A DNA stretch of 45,976 nucleotides from a virus: IMG/VR virus record IMGVR_UViG_3300045988_063015, positions 1 through 45,976 of that record; one strand, written 5' to 3'. The notes beneath the pieces were generated by a model that was not told where the DNA came from, made no database searches, and saw only the letters and a program-made list of their open reading frames with translations. The first letter of the stretch is position 1; each line of letters begins with the position of its first letter. Of this stretch, positions 13,984 through 37,777 are shown in pieces. The position numbers and the translations under genes were made by a program.

Positions 13984-16900
13984 ATGGCTGGACAGGCTGA
14001 CGGCTATATCATCATTGATACGGAGATTGACACCAACGGCGCAAAAGCTGGCAGTAAGGAGCTGGAAGCGAATGTGCGGCAGTGTATCTCGTCTATTAAT
14101 GGTCTTGGAGACAAGGCCAAAGCATCACTTAATAAGCAAGCAAATGCATTTTCAAAGCTGAACGATCAATACAGAGAGCAAGAAAAAAAAGTCGAACAGC
14201 TCAAAGAAAAGGTTTCTGAACTCGGAAAGCAGCAGATACCGACCGACGAATACAAAGAGATCCAGACGCAGATAGAGTCTGCTAAGACGCAGATGGACAA
14301 ACTCATCTATGCGCAGGAAAAATTTGTGGCACTTGGCGGAAGCGAGGACAGTAAAAAGTATAAGAGCTATCAATACGAAATTGATCAGCTCGCGAAAACA
14401 ATTGAATACGCAAAAGGCGAGTTGCAAGATCTTGAGAAAACAGGAAAAGATTTTGCGTCTGCGTTCGGGTCAGAAATTCCAACTCAGAAGTACGCACAAC
14501 TCGAATCAGAATTTGCGAAACTGGAACAGGAAATTTCGAGTGTAAAAGGAAAACGGGATGAACTTCTGTCATCAAACGGTGACGGAAGTAAGACATCAGA
14601 AATTCAAGATCTTACGATTGACCTTGAATTTCTGAAAGATGAGTACGATGCAGTCGCAAGAAAAATGCGTGAAATGGAAAAATCCGGTACTGCAACGATT
14701 AAGAGTGAACCTACAAAAGAAGCAGCGGCAGTAACGGAAAAATTGGCCCAGGAAGAAGAAAAACTTGCCAGTATCAATGACCGGTTAAAAACGTCTTATG
14801 ACGGCGTAAAAGACAGCATTGACAGCTATTCAAATTCGGCGAATAATTCAGCGACTAAAAACGCAGCAGACAACGCGTCAAAATTGGAAAAATCCAATGA
14901 AAAGGTTGCTGACAGCGGAAAGAGGGCCGCAAATTCACTGAAAGAAACCGGAAGTGCGGCTGGAAATGCCAAAAACGGAATTATGACGTTGTTAAAATAC
15001 GGTCTCGGCATCCGCTCATTATTCGTGCTTTTCAATAAGCTGAGAAGCGCGGTTGTGGCTGGAATGTCAAATTTGGCGCAGGAATCCGGCTCAACCAACT
15101 CGGCTATCTCTATGTTGTGGGGCAGCCTGGAACGGCTCAAAAACAGTCTTGCGACAGCATTTGCGCCGATTCTTACGGCGATTGCACCTATTCTGTCCAA
15201 ATTTATCGACATGCTTAGCACCGCGGCAACATACGTGAGTATGTTTTTTTCGATGCTTTCCGGGCAGAAAACATACACCCGAGCATTAGCCGTCCAGAAG
15301 GACTACGCGGCATCTCTAAGCGATACGGCATCGAGTGCGGAAGATGTAGCGGACGCAACCAACGACGCGGCAGATGCGGCAGATGCGGCCGCAGAAGCAA
15401 CGGAAAAATACCTTTCCCCTCTCGATGATCTGAACAAGATGGATTCGAAAAGCGACAGCGGTTCCGGCAGCGGCGGTGGCGGAAAATCCCCGGGAGCTGG
15501 CGGCGGTGGAGGAGGGACAGGCAGTGCGCCGATGTTCACGGAAGAGCAGATCCCTAACGCTTTTCTGGATAATCTGCAGAAAGTTTTTGATTTACTGAAA
15601 AAGATTAAAGACCTGTTTATGTCCGGCTTCTGGGATGGCCTTGGAGATTACAAACCGCAGCTTGCAGAGCTGAAAAAGGATCTGGCATCCATCAAAAAGA
15701 ATCTTGTGGAGATCTTCACAGATCCGGAAGTAGTAGGAGCCGCGAAACGCTTTGCAGAATCTGTAATCTATAATCTAGGGGTCGTTGCCGGATCAATAGC
15801 AAGCGTCGGTCTTACACTGGCTGTCAATCTTGTAGGCGGTTTTGAAAGCTATCTAAACAGAAATAAAGATAGAATCAAGAAATTTTTGGTTGACGTTTTC
15901 AACGTCGGAACAGAAATTGCAGATGAATTCGGACTTATCGCAAAAACGATAGCCGAAGTATTTGCAAAAACGTTTGGCACACAAACAGCGCAGGATTTGA
16001 CAGGAAATCTTATCGGAATTTTTGCATCTTTAGGCGGCTTGGCTGTAGAAATTTTTGCACGATATGAGCGCGATAAAATGTATCTTGCCTGGCAGCCATG
16101 GATCGATAACAAAGATAAATTAGTCGAAGCGATTAACGAAACAATCGCACCTATCCAGCATCTCGCGCAGGTTATCGAGGACTTTTTAAACGATACATCC
16201 GATAAAATCATTGCATTTTATGATGAGAGCGTTAAGCCATTTATTGATGACATCGAATCAGGCTGTGCGTCTATTTTGGAAACATTGCTTGATCTTTATA
16301 ACAGTTATGTAGCACCTATCATCGATGAATGGGGAACGCGGCTCGAAGATTTGATTAATGGACCTCTTACAGATTTTGTCGATAAATTCCTTGATGTGTG
16401 CGCAAAAATCATTGATGCGCTACAGCAAATTTGGAATAACGTTCTTGTTCCCCTTATTAATTGGATTCTTGAAAACGTAATTCCATTGTTGGCGCCTGTT
16501 GTACAATGGCTAGGCGACGCGGCTATTGATTTATTGGGCGCTGCGGTAAAAATGGCGAACGGAATTCTGGATATGCTCGGTGGGTTGATCGATTTCCTCG
16601 TTGGCGTGTTTACGGGCGACTGGAAAAAGGCTTTTTCTGGCGCAGAACAAATAGCACAGGGATTTGCGGATACCTGCGGCGCTGTAATTGAATGGATTGG
16701 CGATTATATTTTAACTCCGTTTATGTCGCTGGTAAAAAAATTATTCTCGGTTGACTGGGTAAAATATTTTGGAGTAGCTGGTATTGCTCCTCAGGTGCTT
16801 TGCGATTTAATCAAAGCGATTTTCGGAACGATGAAAAACGTATTTATTGGAATTATGAATTTTATTAAATACGCCTTTACTGGTGATTGGCGAAACGCTT

Positions 16901-17325
16901 GGCAGAGCGTGAAAAATATTTTTTTCAGCATCATGAGCGGACTTGGTGATGTTCTGCGAGCTCCGATTAACGGAATTATTGATATGATTAACCAGGCAAT
17001 CAACGGAATCAACACGTTGATTCGTGGGGCAAATAAAATTCCTGGCGTAAATATTTCTACAATCGGAAAAATTCCGCATCTGGCATCCGGCGCAGTTATT
17101 CCGCCGAACCAAGAATTCCTTGCTGTCCTTGGTGATCAGCGGAGCGGGAACAACATCGAAGCCCCAGAAAGCCTTATTAGGAAGATTGTGCGGGAAGAAT
17201 CCGGCGGCGGTGGAAAAACATACAGATTTGTAGCACAGCTTGACCGGAAGACTATTTTTGACGAAACAATTTCCGAAGGGAAATTGCGGCAGCTTCAGAC
17301 AGGCCAAAACCAATTTGAATTTTAA
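13984..17325 (+). CDS. Tape measure protein
   Basis: 1113 aa with a coiled-coil N-terminus, a hydrophobic helical core, and a Gly-rich linker SGSGSGGGGKSPGAGGGGGGTGS. Confidence 0.9.
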   Translation: MAGQADGYIIIDTEIDTNGAKAGSKELEANVRQCISSINGLGDKAKASLNKQANAFSKLNDQYREQEKKVEQLKEKVSELGKQQIPTDEYKEIQTQIESAKTQMDKLIYAQEKFVALGGSEDSKKYKSYQYEIDQLAKTIEYAKGELQDLEKTGKDFASAFGSEIPTQKYAQLESEFAKLEQEISSVKGKRDELLSSNGDGSKTSEIQDLTIDLEFLKDEYDAVARKMREMEKSGTATIKSEPTKEAAAVTEKLAQEEEKLASINDRLKTSYDGVKDSIDSYSNSANNSATKNAADNASKLEKSNEKVADSGKRAANSLKETGSAAGNAKNGIMTLLKYGLGIRSLFVLFNKLRSAVVAGMSNLAQESGSTNSAISMLWGSLERLKNSLATAFAPILTAIAPILSKFIDMLSTAATYVSMFFSMLSGQKTYTRALAVQKDYAASLSDTASSAEDVADATNDAADAADAAAEATEKYLSPLDDLNKMDSKSDSGSGSGGGGKSPGAGGGGGGTGSAPMFTEEQIPNAFLDNLQKVFDLLKKIKDLFMSGFWDGLGDYKPQLAELKKDLASIKKNLVEIFTDPEVVGAAKRFAESVIYNLGVVAGSIASVGLTLAVNLVGGFESYLNRNKDRIKKFLVDVFNVGTEIADEFGLIAKTIAEVFAKTFGTQTAQDLTGNLIGIFASLGGLAVEIFARYERDKMYLAWQPWIDNKDKLVEAINETIAPIQHLAQVIEDFLNDTSDKIIAFYDESVKPFIDDIESGCASILETLLDLYNSYVAPIIDEWGTRLEDLINGPLTDFVDKFLDVCAKIIDALQQIWNNVLVPLINWILENVIPLLAPVVQWLGDAAIDLLGAAVKMANGILDMLGGLIDFLVGVFTGDWKKAFSGAEQIAQGFADTCGAVIEWIGDYILTPFMSLVKKLFSVDWVKYFGVAGIAPQVLCDLIKAIFGTMKNVFIGIMNFIKYAFTGDWRNAWQSVKNIFFSIMSGLGDVLRAPINGIIDMINQAINGINTLIRGANKIPGVNISTIGKIPHLASGAVIPPNQEFLAVLGDQRSGNNIEAPESLIRKIVREESGGGGKTYRFVAQLDRKTIFDETISEGKLRQLQTGQNQFEF

Positions 17326-17337
17326 GGAGGGCGAAAG

Positions 17338-17718
17338 ATGGCACAAAAGCATTTGAAATTCGGAGACTATACAGCCCCTGAAGTGGACGATGATGGATAC
17401 ACTTTAGCGTATGCTACTACGTCCTCGGATGATTCTGGGCGAATAATGACCGGAAAAATGATGAACACGACTCTTTTTACCGTGGAAGCTTATACGCTCA
17501 AATGGACGGATATATCTGCCACAGATGTCGCACAGATTCTACAGCGGATTAAAGGCCGCCAGCAATACGAATTTTATCATTTCAACGTTTATTCCGGCGA
17601 ATGGGAAACAACCACGTTTTACACGGCGAACATTGATGTTGGATTCTATTCGCTGGTTGAAGGAGAGGAAAAATGCTCAGAATTGAGTTTTCAAGCTACG
17701 GGGGTTAATCCAGTATGA
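17338..17718 (+). CDS. Distal tail protein-like small tail protein
   Basis: 126 aa directly after the tape measure gene; the call rests on position. Confidence 0.45.
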   Translation: MAQKHLKFGDYTAPEVDDDGYTLAYATTSSDDSGRIMTGKMMNTTLFTVEAYTLKWTDISATDVAQILQRIKGRQQYEFYHFNVYSGEWETTTFYTANIDVGFYSLVEGEEKCSELSFQATGVNPV

Positions 17719-20700
17719 AAAACGTTAGTTCAAAATTCATAGAAGGTATCAAATCCGGTATACCAATTTATCCGGCGGCAAAAGTTACCTTGGCAAACGG
17801 CGAAATACTGGAATTTACGGCCAAAAAGAATTTCCGTGTGACCGGGAATTCTATCACGCAGACGGCGGGAAACAATTCTTTCCCGCTTGGTGCTGCGATC
17901 TCGAAAACGATTAAATTGACGGTTGACAACAGCGATGAAACACTTGATTCAAAAGATTTTCTTGCCGCGATAATCGAGCTTAAAAGCCAAATGCACTACG
18001 CTGATGGGACGACAGAAGAACTAAAAGAAGGTACTTTTATCGTTACGGATCCGGTAACACCAGCAACTACACTAGAGATAACAGCTGCAGACGATATATC
18101 TAAAACGGCTATCACTTATAAGCCTGCTATACAGTATCCGGCAACCCTGCGCAGAATATACCAAGACGTTTGCAGACAGTGCAATTTGACCATCGGAACG
18201 GCAACTTTTAAAAACGACACGTTCACGGTCGAGACAGCACCAGACGGCTGTACATGCCGAGATTTGCTAGGTTATATTGCTATGATTGCTGGCGGGAACG
18301 CTATGTGCGATGAAAACGAGCGCGTAGTTATTAAAAGTTACGACTTGAGCAGTGTAAAAAAAGAAGATGGAAGTTATAACACCGATGCATTTCAAGTCCT
18401 TGAAAATTTTAAGGAATCCCCTACCGTTTCTACTGATCCTATACGCGTGACCGGAGTAAAGACAACAATAGAAGGCGAAGAAGGAAAAGAATCAGAACTT
18501 ATTGTTGGAACAACAGAATACTGTTTTTCTGTTTCGAATCCTCTGCTAGACGGAAAGGAAAAAGATGGATTGCAGCTTATTTCCACTAGCGCGGTTGGAC
18601 TTGAAATGTATGCGTTTAGTGGTGACCATATCGCATACCCAATTGCGGAAGTCATGGACACATGTTTTGTAAAAACGTTAAAAGGGTCTATTTATCCGAC
18701 TGTGATTACATCGGTAGAATACAACTATCTAGGAGCCACAAAGCTGCAATGCGATCTTGACACACCAGAACGAACGGCTACATCATATGGCGGAAAAGCT
18801 GCTGAGATATATCAAAAATTCCGACGTGTTGTGAAGCGGCATTATACAGAATTTGAAAAGCAAATGAGTGACCTTTCTGAACGTATTGAAAATTCTTCTG
18901 GCGTTTTTATGACGCAGGAAACGCAGCCGGATGGAAGCGTTATTTATTATTTGCACAATCGCGAAAAGTTGGAAGAATCAACAATAGTCTGGAAAATGAC
19001 CGCGGAAGCAGTTGCTGTCTCTACGGACGGAGGAAAAACGTGGAACGCTGGTCTTACTGTTGATGGTGATCTGATTTCGAAAATCATGACAACAATCGGC
19101 ATTAATTTTGATTGGGGTGTCGGTGGCACTCTCGTTATACAGGATGCAAACGGGAAGGAAACAGCTTACATGGACGCCACGACCGGAGTCGTGCGCTTTA
19201 ACGTGGATTCTTTGACGATACAGGGTCAGACTGTAGAGAGTATAGCAAGCGGAGCCGCTGAAAAGGTTGCTGAGTTAGCCAAAAATATGACCTTACAGTT
19301 AACGAACGAATACCAGGCTATTAGTGTTGATTCTTCCGGCAACTATTCCACGTTTCCAACGGTTACTACTTCCCCGATTGTTATGTACGGGACGGAGGAC
19401 ATAACAAAAAAATGTTCTTATAGTTTCACATGTTCTGCTGGTGTAACAGGTGTGTGGGATGTTTCCACACTCACGTACACTGTTAAGACGTTGACCAAAA
19501 ACGAGGGATGGGTGGATGTAAGGGCTTCTTATTTGGGGACGCTTGCAGTTACCCGCAGGTTTTCCCTTGCTAAAGTATATGCCGGGGCAGACGGTGCAGA
19601 TGGGAAACCAGGCACAGATGGAAAACCGGGGCGAACTTATTACATTGAACCGTCCGCGCTTGTGGTCAAGCAGGGAAATGATTGCAGCCTTTCGCCTAAC
19701 GTTCTTACGTTTCACTCTTATTATAGGGACGGTACAGACGTTGCAAGATATGATTACGCTGGACGCTTCAAGGTCGAAGAATCATACGACGGCGGGCAGA
19801 CATGGAAAACCATGTATACATCTACAGCGAACGAAAGCGGCATCGAGTATAGCCTTTATACGAATATTGTTACAGCCGCAGGAAAGGCTATTGTAACAGC
19901 AGGCAAAAAGGCTATCAGTGTACCACGTAAAATGTCAATGATACGATGCTCTTTTTACGCTGCGAGTGACACGACACACGCGCTTGATGTGCAGACGCTA
20001 ACAGTAGTTAAGGATGCATCCGCGCTTGGATTTGATGAGCTTTTCAACATCCTAACCAATAACGGAGAAATCAAAGGCATTTATCAAAAAGGTGGGCAAT
20101 TATATATTTCTTTTACCTATGCGCAAGGAGGTGTTCTTACCCTTGGCGGAAAGAATGATGGCCATGGACAACTCATAGTTCTCGATGAAAACGGAACCCA
20201 AATAGGTGCGTGGACAAAAAACGGGTTAATTCTTGACAGCGTAAAACGTTTTACGCTCGGCGATTTTCTCAGCTATGACGACAATCGGGACTCTGTAAAA
20301 CTTACAATGGGCGGATGGCAGGTTAAAAGAACAACAGTCGAAGGAGAACCAGCTGAATACTGGGAGACGTCAGAAACGCAGGAAAACGGTATAGGTGCTT
20401 ATGGCCCGTGGGTTGTCTGGGGCGGTTGGAATGGAAAAGGCCCATTTAACAAAGCCAATTATAATTTCGTGGTTACCGAAGACGGAAGCTGTAAAGCTAT
20501 GTCGTGGGTAACTGGATCCAGGAGCGAGTGGAAAGAAGAAATATGCTCTTACGAGGACGGTGCCCTTGAAAAGGTAGAAAACAGCAAAGTATACAGATAC
20601 AAACTTAAAAACAGGCGGAGAGAGAACGAAGAACACATAGGATTTGTTATTGGTTCTGAATATCCTCTTTCTGATGACCTTCTGGACTATGAAAAAGACA

Positions 20701-20807
20701 ATATAGACATGTATAGCGCGCTTGGAGTTGCGTATAAGGCAATACAAGAACTGAGCGCGAAAGTAAAAACACTCGAAAAGCTCATAGAATCAAAACAGGG
20801 AGAATAA
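17715..20807 (+). CDS. Tail-tip / Tal-like minor structural protein with C-terminal S74-type intramolecular chaperone domain
   Basis: 1030 aa with a prophage-tail-like N-terminus and a short G-X-Y run (GADGADGKPGTDGKPGRT). The C-terminal GSRSEWKEEI...EHIGFVIGSE...YSALGVAYKAIQEL matches the auto-cleaving chaperone pattern. Confidence 0.8.
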   Translation: MKNVSSKFIEGIKSGIPIYPAAKVTLANGEILEFTAKKNFRVTGNSITQTAGNNSFPLGAAISKTIKLTVDNSDETLDSKDFLAAIIELKSQMHYADGTTEELKEGTFIVTDPVTPATTLEITAADDISKTAITYKPAIQYPATLRRIYQDVCRQCNLTIGTATFKNDTFTVETAPDGCTCRDLLGYIAMIAGGNAMCDENERVVIKSYDLSSVKKEDGSYNTDAFQVLENFKESPTVSTDPIRVTGVKTTIEGEEGKESELIVGTTEYCFSVSNPLLDGKEKDGLQLISTSAVGLEMYAFSGDHIAYPIAEVMDTCFVKTLKGSIYPTVITSVEYNYLGATKLQCDLDTPERTATSYGGKAAEIYQKFRRVVKRHYTEFEKQMSDLSERIENSSGVFMTQETQPDGSVIYYLHNREKLEESTIVWKMTAEAVAVSTDGGKTWNAGLTVDGDLISKIMTTIGINFDWGVGGTLVIQDANGKETAYMDATTGVVRFNVDSLTIQGQTVESIASGAAEKVAELAKNMTLQLTNEYQAISVDSSGNYSTFPTVTTSPIVMYGTEDITKKCSYSFTCSAGVTGVWDVSTLTYTVKTLTKNEGWVDVRASYLGTLAVTRRFSLAKVYAGADGADGKPGTDGKPGRTYYIEPSALVVKQGNDCSLSPNVLTFHSYYRDGTDVARYDYAGRFKVEESYDGGQTWKTMYTSTANESGIEYSLYTNIVTAAGKAIVTAGKKAISVPRKMSMIRCSFYAASDTTHALDVQTLTVVKDASALGFDELFNILTNNGEIKGIYQKGGQLYISFTYAQGGVLTLGGKNDGHGQLIVLDENGTQIGAWTKNGLILDSVKRFTLGDFLSYDDNRDSVKLTMGGWQVKRTTVEGEPAEYWETSETQENGIGAYGPWVVWGGWNGKGPFNKANYNFVVTEDGSCKAMSWVTGSRSEWKEEICSYEDGALEKVENSKVYRYKLKNRRRENEEHIGFVIGSEYPLSDDLLDYEKDNIDMYSALGVAYKAIQELSAKVKTLEKLIESKQGE

Positions 20808-20808
20808 C

Positions 20809-21309
20809 ATGGCTGACAACATTTTAATTAGTGGATTGACTGAAAAAACACAGACCGGGTCAGATGACTATTTTATCATCGGAAGCTCTGATGCTAAGAA
20901 AATTTCTTCCGCCAATTTGAAAAAGGAATTTGAAAGTAGTCTTTACGCTGGAGCTGTAGGTGCTTCTTTAAAGAACAGCACTGTTAAAACTACGGGAGAG
21001 CGCTTAATTGGAACCTATAACGGAGCAAATGTATATGAGCAAATCATCGAAACGAAAATGACTAGCTTTGTTAGTGGAACATCGTTTGCAACGATAGAAA
21101 TTTCTATGTCTACCACGCCTGGTAAAGTGCTGAGCGTAGAAAATACGATTTATGGAGACAATAGCACGTATTCTCTACCTTATTTTTCGTGGGAAGGTGC
21201 TGTGAATACGTTTTTCTGGAACGTTGCAGGAACAAAATTAAAGTTCCGAAATAAGGCAGCGTGGGGGGCTAATTATACTCTTGTCACTACGGTTAGATAT
21301 CTTAGATAA
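20809..21309 (+). CDS. Fibre-associated structural protein
   Basis: 166 aa. The N-terminal ISGLTEKTQTGSDDYFIIGSSDAKKISSANLKKEF resembles the N-terminus of the next fibre gene. Confidence 0.55.
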   Translation: MADNILISGLTEKTQTGSDDYFIIGSSDAKKISSANLKKEFESSLYAGAVGASLKNSTVKTTGERLIGTYNGANVYEQIIETKMTSFVSGTSFATIEISMSTTPGKVLSVENTIYGDNSTYSLPYFSWEGAVNTFFWNVAGTKLKFRNKAAWGANYTLVTTVRYLR

Positions 21310-21382
21310 CAAGACCACTGAGTAAAACGACACAGGAAGTATAATAGTTATATGAAAACAGTATCTTATAGGGAGAGAAAAA

Positions 21383-22540
21383 ATGCCACAGTTTAATGAA
21401 TACACAGATAAAACGGAACTGTCTGATTCTGACATTTCCGTTTTATACGACGCGTCCAGCAGGACGACAAAAAGGTTTTCTTTTTTGAACATAAGCCGTT
21501 ATGTGCTTGCGAAGCTTTCCACTCGGTTGTTTACAAATCTTTCCACAGAAGATAAAACAATCCCGGGTGCTATCAACGAGGTCAACACTAAGGCGGCGAA
21601 GATTGATGATTTTGAAAACGTAATCGCCGAAAAAGCGAACAAGGAAGATATTCCGACGACGCTTTCTGAGCTAGCAAGTGACAGTGAACACAATACGGTT
21701 ACGGCTGCGGAAAAAGAAATCTGGAATAAAAAAAGTGATTTCAGTGGAAGTTACAATGATTTGACAGATAAACCGGAAATCCACGGTGTTACGGTTGACG
21801 AAACACTTGATGAAACATCAGAAAATCCCGTGCAGAATAAAGCTGTATACGCTGAATTCCAGAAAAAGGCCGGGAAAAATGACATTCCTAAATCGCTGTC
21901 AGCGTTGGCCGCTGATGAAAACCATAGAACTGTTACAGACACTGAAAAAGAAAATTGGAATGCAAAAAGCGATTTTTCCGGCGACTACAGCGAACTTTCC
22001 AACAAACCAAAAATTCCAGAAAAATTAGCGGATCTTGCGGAAGATGAAACACATCGTACCGTTACCGACAGCGAAAAAGGTGCGTGGGACGCAAAAAGTA
22101 ATTTTTCTGGTAACTATTCGGATCTGTCCGGCGTTCCAGCGATCCCGGAAAAACTTCCGAACCCAAACAAGCTGACATTTTCCGGCGCTGTTACTGCTGA
22201 GTATGACGGCTCTGGCGCGGTAACGGTGGAAATTCCAGAGGAAAACGACTACAGAGTTGCCAGAATCGAAAAAGGAACGACGGACAGCACAGTGGAACTT
22301 GAACCGAATAAGCTTTATATTTTTCCAGAAATGGGGAGCTTAACTTATACGCTTGCGGTGCCGAACGACTCGGCGGTTGCGAACGAATATCATTTTGTTT
22401 TCAAAAGCGGCGCAACAGCAACAAGAGTTGTACACCCGGCAGGGGTCAATATCGGGAGCTTTAGCGTTGAGTCAAATAAAATCTATGAGGTGTCGATCCT
22501 TGAGGGCTTGCTGACGAGCCAGAGTTGGGCGGTGAGCTGA
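21383..22540 (+). CDS. Tail fibre protein with three ~45-aa repeats
   Basis: 385 aa. The unit L(S/A)xLAxDxxH(R/N)TVTxxEKxxWxxKSxFSGxYxxLxxxPxI occurs three times. Confidence 0.75.
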   Translation: MPQFNEYTDKTELSDSDISVLYDASSRTTKRFSFLNISRYVLAKLSTRLFTNLSTEDKTIPGAINEVNTKAAKIDDFENVIAEKANKEDIPTTLSELASDSEHNTVTAAEKEIWNKKSDFSGSYNDLTDKPEIHGVTVDETLDETSENPVQNKAVYAEFQKKAGKNDIPKSLSALAADENHRTVTDTEKENWNAKSDFSGDYSELSNKPKIPEKLADLAEDETHRTVTDSEKGAWDAKSNFSGNYSDLSGVPAIPEKLPNPNKLTFSGAVTAEYDGSGAVTVEIPEENDYRVARIEKGTTDSTVELEPNKLYIFPEMGSLTYTLAVPNDSAVANEYHFVFKSGATATRVVHPAGVNIGSFSVESNKIYEVSILEGLLTSQSWAVS

Positions 22541-23001
22541 TGGAACGAAGAAGAACATTAGGAAGTGAGGCAGAAAGCTCAATGAATGAAGAATATGAAC
22601 TTGTCGGCACTGCAAGTATAACGGAAGAAACGGCTACTGTAAACATACAGTTGAGTAAACCTTGTACAGAGTTATATTTGTTTTGCGAGAAATTAAAAGC
22701 AACAAATAATACGCAATTAATTATTGGTATAGGTAATAACAATATTATGTCGGGTATAAATAATGAATTATCAGCAAATGTACAAAATACCATTCAGCAT
22801 ATAAGAAAGATAGGAAAGACGTGGATGAGGACGGGAAATAATCATGCGTCCTATCCGTTATCTACTGCCACGTCAACAATGTATACTGCAAAATTAAATG
22901 CAAAGAATCCAATACCAGAACAAATTTCTGCGATCACATTACAAGCAAATACGGGCATTGATAAAATCACATCTGGCACAATAGAAGTTTACGGGAGGTA
23001 A
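22540..23001 (+). CDS. MxRRR paralogue 1 (fibre-associated, unknown function)
   Basis: 153 aa starting MERRRTLG. Its ATG overlaps the fibre stop (TGATG), and it is more AT-rich than its neighbours. Confidence 0.6.
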   Translation: MERRRTLGSEAESSMNEEYELVGTASITEETATVNIQLSKPCTELYLFCEKLKATNNTQLIIGIGNNNIMSGINNELSANVQNTIQHIRKIGKTWMRTGNNHASYPLSTATSTMYTAKLNAKNPIPEQISAITLQANTGIDKITSGTIEVYGR

Positions 23002-23007
23002 GTTGAC

Positions 23008-23109
23008 ATGAAACACAAATTAAACCACAATCTGGTCGGTCGGTCGGTCGGTCGGTCGGTCGGTGATCTAACTGACTCGCTCCTGCCGAGCAAGGCGGTG
23101 AGGGTATGA
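23008..23109 (+). CDS. Leader ORF 1 (33 aa) carrying the (GGTC)7 tract
   Basis: GGGAGG lies 9 nt upstream of the ATG. The product is MKHKLNHNLVGRSVGRSVGDLTDSLLPSKAVRV, and its stop TGA overlaps the next start (ATGA at 23106..23109). Confidence 0.4.
   Translation: MKHKLNHNLVGRSVGRSVGDLTDSLLPSKAVRV
23034..23064. repeat. Tetranucleotide microsatellite (GGTC)7+GGT
   Basis: Counted directly: 31 nt with perfect periodicity. Confidence 0.97.
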
Positions 23110-23564
23110 GCCGCCGGAGAATGATGATGCAAGCGCAGGAGGTAGAAAATATGAATTGGAAAGAAGTAAAAACAGTAGTTGCGCAGAATGATGGCGATAC
23201 ATTATATGTAGACGGATTTGAAGCGGAAAGAATTAGAGTGACAGCGATGCTTGCGACCGTAACAGATAATAGAGGACTCCGCTTTAATATTTCGGAAAAT
23301 GCATATGAAAATTCTTTTAACATAGGAACATCTACGTCGACTGAATTTAGACCGCTTTTATGCGAAATTGGAGTTGTTGGAAATTATGCGATAAGCACAG
23401 CCTTTTGCCCTCCCCGAGTTTCTGCTGCTGTTAACGTACAAAACGCAGTAGCGGGAGGAATGGCATTACCAAACGGAGAAACACTTATAAAGCGATTCAG
23501 AATTGGCTCATCGAACGACAAATTGAAAGCGGGGTCTTGGTTGAAAATAGAAAAATGGGAATAG
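23106..23564 (+). CDS. MxRRR paralogue 2
   Basis: 152 aa starting MSRRRMMM. The GGCGGTGAG-N3-ATG junction is identical to the one in front of paralogue 1. Confidence 0.6.
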   Translation: MSRRRMMMQAQEVENMNWKEVKTVVAQNDGDTLYVDGFEAERIRVTAMLATVTDNRGLRFNISENAYENSFNIGTSTSTEFRPLLCEIGVVGNYAISTAFCPPRVSAAVNVQNAVAGGMALPNGETLIKRFRIGSSNDKLKAGSWLKIEKWE

Positions 23565-23578
23565 GAGTTGATACAGAT

Positions 23579-23644
23579 ATGAATGATGCTAAAATCCTGA
23601 CAGCACAGCACAGCACAGCACAGCACAGCACAGCGGGTAATTGA
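23579..23644 (+). CDS. Leader ORF 2 (21 aa in this sequence) carrying the (ACAGC)7 tract
   Basis: The product is MNDAKILTAQHSTAQHSTAGN, ending at TGA 23642. With 8 (or 5) repeat units it would extend to TAA 23688..23690, overlapping the ATG at 23684. Confidence 0.35.
   Translation: MNDAKILTAQHSTAQHSTAGN
23600..23634. repeat. Pentanucleotide microsatellite (ACAGC)7
   Basis: Counted directly: 35 nt with perfect periodicity. Confidence 0.97.
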
Positions 23645-23683
23645 GCTTAAAAACCGCATCAACGCCGAGAAAGCTGTGGAGAC

Positions 23684-24040
23684 ATGGTAAGGCGGCGGAC
23701 GATGCTGGCAGAGATGCCACAAGGGGCGGATGGTATGATGCTGGAATATGTTGGCGATGTTACTTTGGCCAATAACTACGGTACGGTAACGGTAAATTTC
23801 CCGGTCGAAAATGATACTCTGTATATCTTGAGACCGAAAAATTACCCGTACATCAAAGTTATAGCAATATTAGTGCACGGCGATAAATATGGTTTTATAT
23901 TTTGCGCTGAGAATACAACAGGCGGAGCATGGACAGAACGAAACTATGACGTATCTGACGGAAAAGTAGATTTTAAGGCGCGTATCGCCGAAAACAAAAA
24001 TGAAACTATTGATTTTGCAATCTATAAAATGGATCTGTAA
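23684..24040 (+). CDS. MxRRR paralogue 3
   Basis: 118 aa starting MVRRRTML. No well-spaced SD is present (GGAG sits only 2 nt from the ATG). Confidence 0.55.
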   Translation: MVRRRTMLAEMPQGADGMMLEYVGDVTLANNYGTVTVNFPVENDTLYILRPKNYPYIKVIAILVHGDKYGFIFCAENTTGGAWTERNYDVSDGKVDFKARIAENKNETIDFAIYKMDL

Positions 24041-24067
24041 AATCAAACGGAAGGGGGTGATTAAAAA

Positions 24068-24427
24068 GTGCACGCAAAATTGTTAAACGGCTGCCTGCGC
24101 AGCTCCCCGTCTACTGTTATTTTAGACGGCAGATCGATCAATAACCCGCTACCGGAAGAACTGGAACAGCTGGGCTATAAACCTGTGGTATACACGGATG
24201 CACCAGCCGATCAGACCGAGGGCAAGCACTGGGAGTCAGAGTGGGCAGAGGGAGAGACGGAGATCAGACAAGTCTGGAGGCTTGTCGATGATCCGATCTA
24301 TCCGGATCCGGAGCCGACACCAGAGGAAAGAATCAGCAATTTAGAAACCGAAACAGATGAGTTAAAGGCCACATCAGATGATATCATCTTGATGATGGCG
24401 GATTTAATCGGAGGAGAAAAGAAATGA
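24068..24427 (+). CDS. Conserved phage protein of the fibre/lysis junction
   Basis: 119 aa with a GTG start after AAGGGGGTGA. The LEQLGYKPVVYTDAP pattern is common in Firmicutes phages upstream of XkdX/holin genes. Confidence 0.55.
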   Translation: MHAKLLNGCLRSSPSTVILDGRSINNPLPEELEQLGYKPVVYTDAPADQTEGKHWESEWAEGETEIRQVWRLVDDPIYPDPEPTPEERISNLETETDELKATSDDIILMMADLIGGEKK

Positions 24428-24576
24428 AGACTTTAAATAATTTAAAAATGAAAATCATGGTAAGAGCTTTTAGAATCCGGATCAAGGACGGAGAGAATTT
24501 TGAGGACATTGCAGCTGACTACCCGGCGCTGACGGTTGACGACCTCGAAGCGATCAAAGCCGAGCTTGAGAAATAA
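24424..24576 (+). CDS. XkdX-like small protein
   Basis: 50 aa (MKTLNNLKMKIMVRAFRIRIKDGENFEDIAADYPALTVDDLEAIKAELEK). It has an ATGA overlap with the upstream gene and is below the ORF-track size cutoff. Confidence 0.45.
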   Translation: MKTLNNLKMKIMVRAFRIRIKDGENFEDIAADYPALTVDDLEAIKAELEK

Positions 24577-24703
24577 GGGGCGCGAATGGAGATCAGAGGA
24601 AGACCGTAAGACCTCGTTAAAAAAATCAAAAAATAAATCACAAAATAACCGTTGTGGGACTAATATATATCATCCTGCGGCGGTTTTTGAAAACGAGGTA
24701 AAA

Positions 24704-25018
24704 ATGAAAGAATTTATCATGCAGAGCTATACCATCATCCTGCCAATCGTAACCACGGCTCTTATGGGGTATATCGTCTGGCTGCTAAAAAATCAAAAAA
24801 AAGACAGGGATGCCAACAGCAAGGGCACCATGCTCTTGCTGAGAGTGCAGCTGATTGAGTACCATAGCAAATATACGACTCTTGGTGATATCCCATCATA
24901 CGCCTACCAGAATTTCTGCGAGATGTATGACGCCTACCATGCGCTCGGCGGAAACGGCATGGTCACAAAAATGAAGCAGGAAATCGAAGAACTACATATA
25001 AAAAAGAAAGGAAATTAA
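24704..25018 (+). CDS. Lysis-cassette membrane protein (N-terminal TM)
   Basis: 104 aa with a GAGG RBS, starting MKEFIMQSYTIILPIVTTALMGYIVWLL. Confidence 0.6.
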   Translation: MKEFIMQSYTIILPIVTTALMGYIVWLLKNQKKDRDANSKGTMLLLRVQLIEYHSKYTTLGDIPSYAYQNFCEMYDAYHALGGNGMVTKMKQEIEELHIKKKGN

Positions 25019-25022
25019 AGAA

Positions 25023-25316
25023 ATGGAACAGATTATGAACTATGTAAAGCCGGAACTCATCGTTGTTGCTGTAGCCCTGTATTTTCTGGGCATGGCGCTC
25101 AAACAGGCGCAGGCCGTAAAGGATAAATATATCCCGCTGATCCTGGGCGGCGTGAGCATCGTCCTGTGCGCCGTGTGGGTGCTGGCCACCAGCGAAATCG
25201 GAACCGGTCAGCAGGCAGCGATGGCTGTATTTACGGCGATTACACAGGGAATCCTTGTGGCAGGGCTGAGCAACTATGTAAATCAGATCATCAAGCAGGC
25301 ACAGAAAACAGAGTGA
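25023..25316 (+). CDS. Holin
   Basis: 97 aa with multiple TM helices and a charged C-terminus, directly upstream of the endolysin. Confidence 0.75.
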   Translation: MEQIMNYVKPELIVVAVALYFLGMALKQAQAVKDKYIPLILGGVSIVLCAVWVLATSEIGTGQQAAMAVFTAITQGILVAGLSNYVNQIIKQAQKTE

Positions 25317-25376
25317 GGGCGGTATACAACCGTTCTTTTTTGCGCCGGCGCAAACCGGCAGAATCGAGGGAAAACA

Positions 25377-26456
25377 ATGAGGATTGACAGATCATATATC
25401 AGTAACCAGAACACTTACGCCGAAAACGATCCGCGGTGTATCGTGGTGCATAATACGGATAACTTCGCGGCAGGAGCGAACGCGCTGGCACACGCGAGAG
25501 CGCAGTATAACGGTAACTTTGAGAGCATGTCCGCCCATTATTACACAGATGACGGGGACGTTGCCTACCAGGCTGCGCCGCATAGCCGCGGATGCTGGCA
25601 TGTGGGCGTAAATTATGGTGGTAATAACCTGTTCGGCAGATATGGCAACCGTAGCAGCATCGGCGTGGAGATGTGTGTGCAGAAGGGATACAATTACGAA
25701 AAAGCGTTTCAGAACACGGTTGCCGTGGTCAAAGAGATCATGCGTGAAACCGGTATTCCGGCAAGCCGCGTATATCGCCACTATGATATCTGTAGTAAGC
25801 ACTGCCCGAGTCAGATTATGGAGAGGGGCGACTGGGATCGTTTCAAGCGTCTGATCAGTGGCAGCGCATCGGCTGATACGCCGAAGCAGCCTGAAAAGTC
25901 AAAATACGAGCCAGGAATCTACAAGGTCAATACCGACCTTAATATCAGAGAGCAGCCAAACGCAGACAGCCGTATCGTTGGCATGATCACGGATCAGGGC
26001 AGCTATACGGTAACAGAGATCCAAAACACAAGCTGGGGACGGCTGTTATCCGGTGCGGGCTGGATCAACTGCCATGCTAAGTATTGCACTTATGGCGGTG
26101 CAGCCAAAAAATCAAACGAGAAAGCGATCACGGTTGATGGCATTTGGGGGCATGAGCTGACCAAACGCTTGCAAGAGATTTTTAAGACCGGCGTAGACGG
26201 CGTGATCAGTGATCAGCCGACGAGCAACAAAAAATACTGCGCTGGCATTGCGGCGGCCGAATGGTCTGGCAAGCTGTCCGGAGGCTCCGATCTGATCAAG
26301 GCCATGCAGAGATGGGTTGGAGTGACCGCGGACGGATATATCGGACCGCAGACCATCCGCGCGCTCCAGAAAAAACTCGGCACACCGGTTGACGGCGTGA
26401 TTAGCTACCCGTCAGCGATGGTCAAGACTTTGCAGGAGTGGTGTAATCGGCAGTAA
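25377..26456 (+). CDS. Endolysin: N-acetylmuramoyl-L-alanine amidase (Amidase_2) + SH3 + two PG-binding repeats
   Basis: 359 aa with amidase motifs VVHNTDN, IGVEMC and HYDICSKHCP. An SH3-like segment YKVNTDLNIREQP is followed by VDGIWGHELTKRLQ and ADGYIGPQTIRALQKKLG. Confidence 0.9.
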   Translation: MRIDRSYISNQNTYAENDPRCIVVHNTDNFAAGANALAHARAQYNGNFESMSAHYYTDDGDVAYQAAPHSRGCWHVGVNYGGNNLFGRYGNRSSIGVEMCVQKGYNYEKAFQNTVAVVKEIMRETGIPASRVYRHYDICSKHCPSQIMERGDWDRFKRLISGSASADTPKQPEKSKYEPGIYKVNTDLNIREQPNADSRIVGMITDQGSYTVTEIQNTSWGRLLSGAGWINCHAKYCTYGGAAKKSNEKAITVDGIWGHELTKRLQEIFKTGVDGVISDQPTSNKKYCAGIAAAEWSGKLSGGSDLIKAMQRWVGVTADGYIGPQTIRALQKKLGTPVDGVISYPSAMVKTLQEWCNRQ

Positions 26457-28711: not shown

Positions 28712-28760
28712 ATCAATGTAAGGGATTGTAGGGGAATGTAAAGGAATGTAAATGTGTCAT
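28712..28760 (+). repeat. Tandem ~10-bp repeats (GGAATGTA-like, four copies)
   Basis: caatgtaa gggattgta ggggaatgta aaggaatgta aatgtgt, with roughly 10-bp phasing, between attP and the int 3' end. Confidence 0.5.
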
Positions 28761-28771
28761 TTTCGTGTCAC
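28750..28771 (+). repeat. 22-bp direct repeat, copy 2
   Basis: AAATGTGTCATTTTCGTGTCAC, overlapping the int stop codon. Confidence 0.6.
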
Positions 28772-29874
28772 ATGGAAAGAGCTGCTTCTACCGCTCCGGC
28801 GGTGTCCTCTTTTTCCAGCATAATATGATTGTAAATCCTCAAAACCATTGCTTCGTCATCCCCCAGGAGCGACGCGATGTTCTTGATCGAGATGCGCGGG
28901 ATCTGGTAGCAGAGCGACGTGCAGTAGTTGTGCCGGAAGATATGGGCTGTGAGTCCGCATACGGGCTTTTCAGCGACTCTATTCATTTCCTTGATGATTC
29001 TTTCCCACTTCCGGCGGTAAGAGGATTTAGATACCATTTTGCCGCCCTGCATGGAAAACAGAAGCGTTCCCTTGATACAGAACCGCACGTAGCTTTCCAG
29101 CGACGTATAGAGCTGCTGCGGAATTGGAACCTGCCGGAATCCGTTCTTCGATTTCGGTTCTTTGATGCTCGGCTTTCCGGCATCATCGAACTCGATTGAT
29201 TTATTCACGTTGATGACCTTTTCGGAAAAATCAATATCAAACCGTGTGAGAGCAAGAACTTCTCCACATCGTAGCCCCGTGCAGTATAAGATATCCACAA
29301 AAATCCGATCAGATGGGGATAACTCTGCTTTCACCATGGCGTTTTTTTCGTTTTCGGTTAACGGTCGTTTCTCATCCGCCTTGTAGTCGATCGGCTTCAT
29401 CACGTCCTTGAGATCCTCCAGCAGGTTGGCGGGATATAATCGGTCATGCACCGCGGCCTTCATGATCTGCGAGAATGTAAGCTGTATCTGCTGCTGGATG
29501 CGTTTCTTTCCGGCCGCGTCGTTAAGGACTGTCTGGTAGTGGATCGGCAGGACATCGCAGAGCCGCACGCCGTCCATCTGTCGCAGATGCTTTTCAATGA
29601 TATTTTGGTACATCCTCTTCGTGTTGTTCGTTGCTTCGGCTTTGTAGGCTGTCAGCCACCGCCCGGCGTAGTCCAGAAACAGGATGTTTTTATCTCGGAC
29701 GGCTTCAAGGTTCTTAATTTTGTCGTTGTAGGCTGCCACCTTTGCTTCCAGATCCTTACTGCTTTTCTTCGACCGGATCGTAATATAGTGCTTTTTCCCA
29801 TCAACATAACTTCCATCCCACACACGGGCTTGAAAATACCCGTTCTTTTGCTTTGTATACTTCGCCTTTGCCAT
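28768..29874 (-). CDS. int: Tyrosine recombinase / phage integrase
   Basis: 368 aa with an N-terminal SAM-like domain. Catalytic-region motifs are TGLRCGEVLAL, AHIFRHNYCT and LRIYNHIM. Confidence 0.92.
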   Translation of the reverse strand: MAKAKYTKQKNGYFQARVWDGSYVDGKKHYITIRSKKSSKDLEAKVAAYNDKIKNLEAVRDKNILFLDYAGRWLTAYKAEATNNTKRMYQNIIEKHLRQMDGVRLCDVLPIHYQTVLNDAAGKKRIQQQIQLTFSQIMKAAVHDRLYPANLLEDLKDVMKPIDYKADEKRPLTENEKNAMVKAELSPSDRIFVDILYCTGLRCGEVLALTRFDIDFSEKVINVNKSIEFDDAGKPSIKEPKSKNGFRQVPIPQQLYTSLESYVRFCIKGTLLFSMQGGKMVSKSSYRRKWERIIKEMNRVAEKPVCGLTAHIFRHNYCTSLCYQIPRISIKNIASLLGDDEAMVLRIYNHIMLEKEDTAGAVEAALSM

Positions 29875-37004: not shown

Positions 37005-37078
37005 AAATGCCCTCCGGTGAGACGAAGGGCATCCGTAAAAAGACAACATCATCATAGCACATGAAAGGAGAAAAGGCA

Positions 37079-37777
37079 ATGGGAATGAAAGGATTTAAAG
37101 GGTTCGAGAAAGATTTTTCCTGCAGAGGGAAACAGTACGAGGAAAACACGACTTACGAGGAGAACGGAACCGGATGCTGCCATAAAGGAGTTATGCATTT
37201 CTGCGAGGATCCGTGGGAGGTGCTGAATCATTATGATCTCGTAGATGGAAATGGAGATTTTTCCGAATTTGCGGAAGTGGACGCCCGGGGACAGGTTTGG
37301 AGTGATGGGGATAAGCGTGCGACAGATAAGCTCCATATCGGAGCAAAGCTCGGATTTAAAGGCTTTATCAAAGCGTGTGTTGATTTTACGGTCGAGCGTA
37401 CAAAATTTGACGACTTAATCGGCTCGTCCGGGAACTCTGCGAAGATCGGAAGCTCCGGGAACTCTGCGAAGATCGGAAGCTCCGGGGACTATGCGAAGAT
37501 CGGAAGCTCCGGGGACTATGCGAAGATCGGAAGCTCCGGGAACTCTGCGCAGATCAATAGCACCGGTGAAGATGCGGTGATTATGTGTGCGGGTAATGAA
37601 TCACGAGCAAAAGCCAAAAAGGGAAGCTGGATCACGCTTGCGGAATGGGTGGAAGATGAAGAAAAAGGACGCTATGTGCCGGTATGCGTAAAAACTGAGT
37701 ACGTAGACGGCGAAAAAATCAAAGAAGACACCTATTACACGCTGAAAAGCGGAGAATTTGTGGAGGTAGAAGAATGA
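37079..37777 (+). CDS. DUF7666-like protein with five 9-aa IGSSG(N/D)(S/Y)AK repeats
   Basis: KGFKGFEKDFSCRGKQYEENTTYEE...MHFCEDPWEVLNHY has the family pattern as I recall it. The start is ATG at 37079 or 37085. Confidence 0.65.
   Translation: MGMKGFKGFEKDFSCRGKQYEENTTYEENGTGCCHKGVMHFCEDPWEVLNHYDLVDGNGDFSEFAEVDARGQVWSDGDKRATDKLHIGAKLGFKGFIKACVDFTVERTKFDDLIGSSGNSAKIGSSGNSAKIGSSGDYAKIGSSGDYAKIGSSGNSAQINSTGEDAVIMCAGNESRAKAKKGSWITLAEWVEDEEKGRYVPVCVKTEYVDGEKIKEDTYYTLKSGEFVEVEE
37418..37552 (+). repeat. 27-bp tandem repeat, five copies, in frame
   Basis: ATCGG(C/A)(T/A)(C/G)(G/C)TCCGGG(A/G)ACT(C/A)TGCG(A/C)AG units, 135 nt in total. Confidence 0.95.

Follow-up and report, generated by a model that had tools for sequence, protein, structure and literature searches.

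Analysis of a complete temperate siphovirus-like gut-phage genome of 45,976 nt (IMG/VR record IMGVR_UViG_3300045988_063015; the whole of this stretch is referred to below as the window) revealed a row of three small genes, P1, P2 and P3, immediately downstream from a tail-fibre-like gene. The products of all three begin with the motif MxRRR, and a short leader open reading frame (ORF) containing a perfect tetra- or pentanucleotide repeat precedes P2 and another precedes P3. We propose, with a probability of roughly 0.68, that these leaders are repeat-gated translational switches placed in series before cassettes of the fibre-tip type, and that slippage in the repeats turns the cassettes ON or OFF as a form of bet-hedging on host recognition.

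Tandem Repeats Finder detected two perfect arrays, (GGTC)7.75 and (ACAGC)7.0, one in each leader ORF. These are the only arrays of that kind in the 46-kb window, for which the chance expectation of a 16-nt (GGTC)4 probe is 0.00 occurrences. Neither repeat unit has a length divisible by three and both arrays lie inside leader coding frames. Shortly after each repeat two of the three frames are closed by stop codons; the third, called here the through frame, continues to the start codon of the next cassette. The elements of the array are the following:

21383..22540, + strand: tail-fibre-like gene (385 aa); its TGA at 22538-40 overlaps the P1 start (TGATG)
22540..23001, + strand: P1, MERRR(TL) cassette (153 aa); always the first after the fibre gene, with no repeat switch before it
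23008..23109, + strand: leader ORF 1 (33 aa, MKHKLNHNL(VGRS)n...AVRV), in the through frame; its TGA at 23107-09 overlaps the P2 ATG (ATGA)
23034..23064, + strand: simple-sequence repeat 1, perfect (GGTC)x7.75, in leader ORF 1
23069..23075, + strand: TAA 23069-71 and TGA 23073-75, closing both OFF frames after repeat 1 (gatcTAAcTGA)
23106..23564, + strand: P2, MSRRR(MM) cassette (152 aa); predicted state in the window, ON
23579..23644, + strand: leader ORF 2 (MNDAKIL(TAQHS)n..GN), ending at TGA 23642-44, 40 nt short of the P3 ATG; OFF
23600..23634, + strand: simple-sequence repeat 2, perfect (ACAGC)x7.0, in leader ORF 2
23638..23644, + strand: TAA 23638-40 and TGA 23642-44, closing both OFF frames after repeat 2 (ggTAAtTGA)
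23684..24040, + strand: P3, MVRRR(TM) cassette (118 aa); predicted state in the window, OFF; coupled only after a change of +1 (or -2) ACAGC units

Each leader has a Shine-Dalgarno (SD) sequence of its own. For leader ORF 1 this is GGGAGG (22994-22999), contributed by the last P1 codons (TAC GGG AGG TAA) and located 9 nt before the ATG. For leader ORF 2 it is AGGAG (23563-67), which overlaps the P2 stop codon and extends just beyond it, 11 nt before the ATG at 23579; the frame of this leader is also open from TTG 23537 and ATG 23555. Repeat lengths of -1, 0 and +1 units were simulated. With its present number of units leader 1 is in the through frame and coupled to P2 (ON); leader 2 is OFF, and the addition of one ACAGC unit takes it into the third frame, which runs to TAA 23688-90 (ATGGTAA), overlapping the P3 start.

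The three MxRRR ORFs and the stop/start overlaps TGATG (fibre/P1), ATGA (leader 1/P2) and ATGGTAA (leader 2/P3) had been pointed out in an earlier note on this DNA, made from the sequence alone, and their coordinates were reproduced here. The third overlap exists in the ON frame only: leader ORF 2, for which the note gave this overlap in an extended frame, needs one more ACAGC unit to be in that frame. The repeats had not been named in the note, and it is the tetra- or pentanucleotide repeat in the leader that makes the upstream translation variable. A -1 frameshift fusing the fibre to P1 was also considered and rejected: upstream, the P1 frame stays open for no more than 12 codons, and no slippery heptamer was seen there.

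The following mechanism is proposed. P1 would be translated with the fibre gene through the TGATG overlap. Before each further cassette, ribosomes would initiate on the leader at its own SD and read through the 4- or 5-nt repeat. In two of the frames they would meet a stop codon after the repeat, and in the third they would be carried about 14 codons further, to a stop codon overlapping the MxRRR ATG or, elsewhere, into an in-frame fusion with the cassette. Polymerase slippage during replication would alter the number of units and so put the leader now in the through frame (ON), now in one of the two closed frames (OFF). When the leader is ON, the ribosomes would cross the 5' arms of two predicted helices, an anti-SD:SD helix over an internal ribosome binding site (RBS) and a hairpin holding the MxRRR ATG, and this would permit re-initiation at the MxRRR ATG as well as initiation at an internal ATG. 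Progeny would in this way differ, heritably but reversibly, in the tip proteins made, which would amount to bet-hedging on host recognition.

Relatives of P1 and P2 (63-84% identity) were collected from twelve IMG/VR contigs; two leader-derived DNA patterns added about 40 contigs and contigs encoding P3 relatives added others. A script found 61 sense-strand switches in the related contigs; the 50 that could be evaluated come from about 45 contigs. In every one of the 50, exactly one of the three frames reaches the cassette. Coupling was seen in 36, with the leader stop codon at +1 or +4 of the MxRRR ATG (ATGA or ATGnnTAA/TGA), and in the other class (14/50) the leader is fused, reading directly into an L-RRR-LL body, which is the classical in-ORF design. 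By their frames 23 switches are ON and 27 OFF. The frame logic kept in all evaluable switches supports, at the level of sequence, the earlier suggestion that P2 and P3 are so arranged that their expression depends on what is translated before them.

The copy number of the repeats ranged from 4.75 to 21 across the related switches. The unit itself varies by lineage (GTCA, GGTC, GTCG, ACAG/GACA, ACAGC, ACGGC) while its position and the frame logic remain constant, as expected if repetitiveness itself is selected. Homologues of repeat 1 are (GTCA)5-21, (GTCG)8.5 and (GGTC)6-6.75; at the place of repeat 2 the related loci have (ACAGC)4.8-15, (ACGGC)9 or (ACAG)4.75-13.75. The comparison with related phages that the earlier note had called for showed the same MxRRR arrays with shuffled cassettes, and at least 23 body families, following one common N-terminal module, were counted among the approximately 45 loci.

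The most direct evidence for hypermutability of the repeats is given, at the sequence level, by loci L143 and L164, which over 4.4 kb differ by two mismatches and two gaps, both gaps being the repeats. The first repeat is (GTCA)11.25 in L143 and (GTCA)16.25 in L164, corresponding to ON versus OFF; the second is (ACAG)12.5 versus (ACAG)8.5, OFF versus ON. In a further pair, L155 and L175, (ACAG)5.75 versus (ACAG)4.75 corresponds to ON versus OFF.

Nine contigs end at or just after a repeat. This could be taken to mean that the repeats and overlaps are neutral or artefactual, namely assembly errors or selfish microsatellites lying between independently translated small genes; many short contigs break at repeats and identical contigs have identical repeat counts. 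We find such an explanation hardly credible, since dozens of assemblies, made independently and from different samples, have this architecture, the position and frame logic stay constant when the unit changes, and the repeats are perfect, have 5-21 copies and are without parallel elsewhere in the 46-kb genome.

The breaks deserve mention in their own right. Many short metagenomic contigs (L137, L181-L190 and the nine above) begin or end exactly in the repeats, so that assembly fails there systematically; this may reflect k-mer length, within-sample heterogeneity in repeat length, or both. Some cassette junctions carry hybrid repeat tracts (L007, 6495..6600; L012, 6493..6540; L140; L159, - strand, ~1711..1790). 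One example reads (GTCA)19, then CAGCACAGC, then an LRRRLL body, and L159 mixes GTCA, ACAG and ACAGC units. These tracts look like products of recombination between different repeats with loss of the intervening cassettes.

The post-repeat part of the leaders (..ADSLLSSWAVEL, ..LLPSKAVRV; 23065..23109 in the window, and the leaders in L003-L013) resembles the C-terminal end of the fibre (..EGLLTSQSWAVS*, window 22490..22540) at both the DNA and the protein level, and the likeness takes in the ..GGGCGGTGAG..ATG junction. The sequences suggest that the leaders are duplicated fibre 3' ends and that the array grew by tandem duplication of a unit made of fibre end and cassette.

A P1-family profile was searched against 1.84 billion representatives. 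The P1 body (residues ~16-153) matched the C-terminal domain of proteins of 191-592 aa, with E values from 6.5e-8 to 2.6e-4. In the longer proteins (307-592 aa) the matches of the P1 hidden Markov model cover residues 458-592, 177-307, 231-359 and 278-407, and the N-terminal parts of the matched proteins are collagen-like or match tail-fibre PHROGs. One of the matched proteins, the fibre protein P0180, has the KLPNPNxLTFxGAVTxxYDGS linker of the window fibre (BLASTP of the window fibre to P0180, E 4e-12), and in P0180 a P1-like domain comes directly after it. Since the P1 body matches fibre C-termini and P0180 joins the linker to a P1-like domain, P1 is, judging from these matches, a fibre-tip domain encoded as a separate polypeptide, in which the MxRRR peptide would replace the covalent link. 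This homology to fibre C-terminal domains is the firmest functional clue that the sequence comparisons provided.

A shaft in which HxTVTxxEKxxW occurs three times, a KLPNPNKLTFSGAVTAEYDGS linker and a beta-rich C-terminal domain with LLTSQSWAVS at its end make up the fibre of the window; the C-terminal end of the fibre is kept in all related loci. The idea that the three acidic HxTVTxxEKxxW repeats are docking sites for three cassettes was discarded, as the number of these repeats (0-3) does not track the number of cassettes (1-4) across loci. The C-domain is about 41% identical to Enterocloster bolteae phage proteins. In the cultured Enterocloster phage CB473P1 (L191, OP172755.1 39858..42019), the C-terminal half of a 194-aa protein resembles the C-domain of the window fibre and ends LLTFQGWKVSN; a 525-aa gene follows directly, with no MxRRR gene and no repeat there. 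CB473P1 could be a tractable relative for asking whether the fibre C-domain is a docking platform for distal proteins.

The first approximately 20 residues are common to P1, P2 and P3: M-x-RRR-[TMI]-[LM], an acidic stretch and a (Y/W/L)-x-x-(L/V)-V strand. Pairwise BLASTP and hhalign comparisons of the three, with and without the N-terminal 22 residues, gave nothing significant beyond the first 6-50 residues. The description of the three as diverged paralogues is not borne out by sequence, homology of the bodies not being demonstrable by BLASTP or hhalign, although the P1 and P2 models share a run of ten strands. A broadened tip-domain profile links cassette family c7 to the P1 family; it does not link P2 or P3 to it. 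In L152 a P3-like body is joined to the standard MLRRRMMMAKAQEVEEM module, indicating that N-terminal module and body are exchangeable. The RRR residues are encoded by five different codon sets, fused cassettes lacking an ATG included, and are thus a protein-level feature; on the same grounds a role of RRR as a nucleotide-level element only was rejected.

No Pfam or PHROG match at E ≤ 0.1 and no PDB sequence match was found for P1-P3, and by the Pfam and PHROG searches they are not members of the tail-fibre assembly chaperone families (Tfa / gp38 / Mu U). AlphaFold2 models of P1 (predicted local distance difference test, pLDDT, 59.7; predicted template modelling score, pTM, 0.62) and P2 (pLDDT 61.4; pTM 0.60) are predicted all-beta sandwiches with ten strands each at nearly the same positions. 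Structure searches had been recommended earlier; these two models came out alike, and their Foldseek matches were weak. They include CBM29, galectin and L-type lectin domains, SPP1 Dit, the Tuc2009 receptor-binding-protein head, and collagen-repeat and tail-fibre proteins in BFVD (predicted viral structures).

A different role has to be considered for these proteins. The cassettes could be accessory (moron-like) or fibre-assembly proteins that are not part of the virion, transcribed, for example in the lysogen, from promoter-like hexamers, so that the repeat would lie in that transcript's 5' end; the repeats would in that case influence the properties of the transcript, or be chiefly points of recombination at which cassettes are exchanged. 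Such hexamers, near-consensus and of the sigma-70 type (TTGACA/TTGAYA-16/17-(C/T)A(A/C)AAT), overlap the leader start and end 2-4 nt before the repeat in 53 of the 61 leaders, and they are kept in three leader types; their forms are TTGACA-17-CA[CA]AAT and, with TGn, TTGA[TA]A-16-TAAAAT. Those of the window are:

23003..23031, + strand: promoter-like TTGACA-17-CACAAT, overlapping the leader 1 start and ending 2 nt before repeat 1
23568..23595, + strand: promoter-like TTGATA-16-(TGc)TAAAAT, overlapping leader 2 and ending 4 nt before repeat 2

The region between fibre and lysis genes is a common site for accessory genes. The hybrid tracts of L007, L012 and L159 suggest recombination within the repeats, the body families are extensively shuffled, and P2 and P3 lack fibre homology, all of which would fit an accessory role. 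A transcript starting from these hexamers would, however, begin inside the repeat and lack the leader ATG, and the strict three-frame design of all 50 switches would be purposeless unless the leader is translated through the repeat. Moreover, the leader SD is conserved, and in two leader types lies outside coding sequence; the P1 body is homologous to fibre C-terminal domains; and the searches gave no chaperone, Pfam or PHROG family match. An accessory or assembly role is, in our judgement, quite improbable.

The manner in which a leader could control its cassette was considered from the start sites and the predicted RNA structure. SD-like sequences at the MxRRR ATGs are weak or too close, and a strong internal SD-ATG pair, predicted to be masked, lies 45 nt downstream. 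In P2 there is an in-frame ATG at codon 16 (23151) with AGGAGG at 23137-42, at 8 nt spacing; in P1 an in-frame ATG at codon 15 (22582) has GTGAGG (22565-70) 11 nt upstream, and P1-type genes share this codon-15 ATG with GTGAGG at about that distance. Every ..QEVEEM.. cassette has an in-frame ATG at codon 16/17 with AGGAGG, formed by the Q-E-V codons, 7-8 nt before it. The SD duplex energy is -10 to -11.6 kcal/mol at the internal ATG versus -1.5 to -8 kcal/mol at the MxRRR ATG. The observation that none of the three genes has a well-spaced SD is accordingly correct for the MxRRR ATGs, and not for the internal in-frame ATGs of P2 and P1. On contigs identical to the window, gene callers picked the internal starts.

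The complement of the internal SD sits in the part of the leader that is translated in the through frame only. Two elements were predicted in the window:

23080..23086, + strand: anti-SD stretch CTCCTGC in leader 1's through frame; pairing with GCAGGAG (23135-23141) is predicted and is present in the minimum-energy fold
23094..23115, + strand: predicted hairpin GGCGGT (23094-99)/GCCGCC (23110-15), with the P2 ATG (23106) in the loop

In the folding ensemble the internal SD region was paired with the leader at P 0.83-1.0 in 29/29 unique coupled switches. When the leader/RBS duplex energy was compared with 500 dinucleotide shuffles of the leader, z was -2 or lower in 27 of the 29, typically -3 to -4.6. 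The leader peptides of the two main classes differ (..ADSLLSSWAVEL versus ..VDSKSCVKSEIAVEIC; ADSLLSS versus VDSKSCVK), yet each leader complements its own RBS. In an anchored pair table the pairing is preserved through two double (compensatory) changes and four single ones, and there is one mismatch. From these comparisons the anti-SD:SD helix is probably real, and translating ribosomes would open it. No terminator-like site was found on the + strand in 20700..25400, and the predicted helices have no U-tract.

The strong internal starts allow another explanation, in which the repeats control an N-terminal extension only. The main product would be made constitutively from the internal ATG of the late transcript, leader coupling would add a long isoform with the MxRRR peptide, which may be an anchoring or targeting tag, and phase variation would alter the isoform ratio instead of switching the gene ON and OFF. 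This would account for the internal ATG (codon 15-17) with an AGGAGG or GTGAGG SD in all cassettes of that type and for its stronger duplex, as well as for the choice made by the gene callers. It would also suit the facts that bodies begin at the internal Met, that the N-terminal module can be exchanged between bodies (cluster 9 versus P3) and that fused fibre homologues lack the RRR segment. We nevertheless consider it unlikely: every coupled switch is predicted to have its internal SD paired with the leader, cassettes of the fused type contain no internal Met and rely on the leader frame entirely, and selection must act on the long form, RRR being conserved at the protein level. In annotation, gene callers will be misled by ON/OFF states and by contigs that break at the repeats; they already choose different starts on identical sequence.

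Several observations weigh against the proposed switch or against parts of it. For switch 1 of the window the fold gave z -1.2 and the duplex z -1.44, 41 of the 500 shuffles being as good. The probability of SD pairing, compared with shuffled leaders, was not significant for one switch class; this test tells little, since chance pairing of a purine-rich SD with leaders rich in pyrimidines is frequent. RNAalifold found no consensus structure for 25 switches aligned with MAFFT, an alignment in which the two switch classes are out of register and which accounts for the failure, and it was replaced by the per-sequence folding, duplex-energy shuffles and anchored pair table described above. The switch sequences fall into only about five haplotypes and offer few covariation events. 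Owing to its strong internal RBS, P2 could be synthesised in part without the leader, and the conserved promoter-like hexamers are not accounted for by the switch model.

The repeat counts and the proteins add to these points. Five contigs from other samples that are 100% identical to the window have the same repeat counts as the window, so that switching is not fast enough for consensus assemblies to differ. The P1 and P2 models have a pLDDT of only about 60, and a single structural match reached E ≤ 1e-3 (a predicted viral protein, E 8e-4). Homology to fibre tips was not detectable for P2 or P3; the earlier view of the cassettes as alternative fibre-tip or receptor-binding modules is consistent with the P1 body, and no such link was found for the other two. 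In the proposed reading the cassette proteins would enter the virion and bind a host receptor.

Repeat-gated switching may be part of a larger arrangement, which we put forward tentatively, at somewhat less than an even chance. Widespread temperate phages of gut Clostridia would carry an undescribed modular host-range switch, in which stand-alone tips dock non-covalently, via the MxRRR peptide, on a constant fibre. The tips would be drawn from a shuffled pool of more than 20 cassette families, each gated independently by a repeat leader derived from a duplicated fibre 3' end and acting through anti-SD:SD opening and re-initiation. If this is true, one prophage could release progeny with up to 2^n combinations of receptor-binding tips.

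The gene order of the window is SPP1-type portal and minor capsid protein, tape measure, tail protein, fibre, cassette array, Hol44 holin and Amidase_2 endolysin; a tyrosine integrase, a repressor and an antirepressor are encoded after the lysis genes. Two of the tail genes are located as follows:

13984..17325: tape measure
17715..20807: tail protein

The tail protein is similar to Blautia and Ruminococcus gnavus phage proteins and to human faecal phage contigs. Because the tail protein and the fibre C-domain resemble proteins of such phages, the host is, going by these similarities, probably a member of the Lachnospiraceae. In the cultured-phage collection the region had no DNA match and P1 no tblastn match. 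A scan of genome contigs with the P1 profile gave no match, and no host genome was identified in this way; the leader DNA pattern was too unspecific for such a scan, giving 120 matches, none of them followed by a repeat.

Between the array and the holin lie a 119-aa ORF (24068..24427) and an overlapping 50-aa ORF (24424..24576; phrog_28526, borderline DUF433), which also follow the array in those P3-type related loci whose gene tables were read. L013 (NCBI GCA_003604455.1, QZLQ01000010.1) is a bacterial contig of 217 kb; there the terminase genes and a minor-capsid gene enclose the fibre, two cassettes, a CBM_5_12 protein and the holin, next to a Cas_Csd1 gene, and the gene order is unlike that of the window. 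Two other repeats were noted in the window. The ORF at 37061..37777, in the early/regulatory half, contains a 27-nt tandem repeat at 37427..37576 (4.8 copies, 95% matches; alternatively 81 nt x 1.9). A 10-nt repeat, (AATGTAAGGG)x3.7, at 28715..28751 lies beside the end of the integrase gene (28768..29874, - strand) and may represent binding sites or part of the attachment region.

Among known systems, the Haemophilus influenzae lic1 CAAT and Neisseria opa CTCTT repeats are non-triplet repeats near the 5' end of the coding sequence, in which slipped-strand mispairing switches the frame. The fused-type switches (leader, repeat, LRRRLL body) have exactly this design, lic1 and opa being host genes that specify surface structures; the coupled-type switch differs in that its repeat is in a separate upstream ORF. 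Phages Mu and P1 (Gin/Cin) carry invertible G/C segments that place alternative distal fibre modules side by side downstream of a constant part, a stochastic, reversible, site-specific inversion choosing among them; PMC12823448 cites these segments as its ref. 57. The array is like these in its presumed purpose and unlike them in mechanism: an invertible segment of the Mu Gin type was rejected for the window, as every cassette lies on the + strand and the search for inverted repeats flanking them was negative, and with independent switches the states would not be mutually exclusive. No invertase gene was seen among the scanned ORFs beside the array, a scan not aimed at invertases specifically.

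The BppL proteins of the lactococcal phages Tuc2009 and TP901-1 are small baseplate receptor-binding proteins, beta sandwiches of about 160 aa in which an N-terminal segment docks and the carbohydrate-binding head is variable. BppL structures (5e7t_H and 5e7f_G) were among the weak Foldseek matches to the P1 model (E ~0.03, template modelling score ~0.26). P1 has no sequence similarity to BppL, and the N-terminal MxRRR motif is not known to us from BppL.

In the pil1 locus of Streptococcus gallolyticus, (GCAGA)n lies in a leader ORF and gain or loss of units moves the leader stop relative to an RNA stem-loop; ribosomes that read further melt the stem-loop, which is a transcription terminator, and so raise downstream expression, i.e. 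attenuation (Danne et al. 2014, PMC3894217). As in pil1, the repeats of the window are in short leader ORFs with a conserved SD and ATG, upstream of the gene to be regulated. Unlike in pil1, there is no U-tract or terminator and the predicted helices close the RBS and start codon; the leader ends at a stop codon overlapping the following ATG or continues in frame into the cassette; and the locus is not a bacterial pilus operon but a phage array with several switches in series before alternative cassettes.

Hypermutable polyG tracts occur in receptor-binding-protein genes of Campylobacter Fletchervirus (Sorensen et al. 2021, Cell Rep 35:109214, cited in 10.1101/2025.10.21.683753 and PMC12823448). 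As these citing papers describe them, a simple repeat in a phage there makes host-recognition proteins phase variable and progeny mixed, as we propose for the window. By the same account the Fletchervirus tract is a homopolymer inside the coding sequence, in contrast to units of 4-5 nt in 5-21 copies, placed in dedicated leader ORFs and acting by coupling or fusion, in phages that are temperate and have Gram-positive gut bacteria as hosts. The contingency loci of T2/T4 are homopolymer simple-sequence repeats of at least 6 bp, spread over many genes and reported to be under-represented in tail fibres (Gomez, Barrick & Waters 2025, 10.1101/2025.10.21.683753). They share with the window the use of slippage-prone phage repeats for bet-hedging, and differ in lacking both a leader ORF and a cassette array.

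In the open-access full-text literature that was searched, phage leader switches with tetra- or pentanucleotide repeats were not found described. The earlier remark that this was not recognised as a described system is upheld, as far as we found, for the combination, and not for its parts: simple-sequence contingency loci, the pil1 leader and the polyG receptor-binding proteins of Campylobacter phages are already known. The repeat, the two stop codons, the anti-SD and the overlapping stop/start together form a compact natural design that could be reused as a stochastic translational switch. Known routes by which phages vary host recognition are DNA inversion, diversity-generating retroelements and, for Campylobacter phages, polyG tracts. 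If the proposed switch is true, long tetra- and pentanucleotide repeats in leader ORFs, gating a row of fibre tips in abundant temperate phages of human-gut Clostridia, would be a fourth route, and would help to explain both how gut prophages cope with strain-level variation of the host surface and why their fibre regions assemble poorly.

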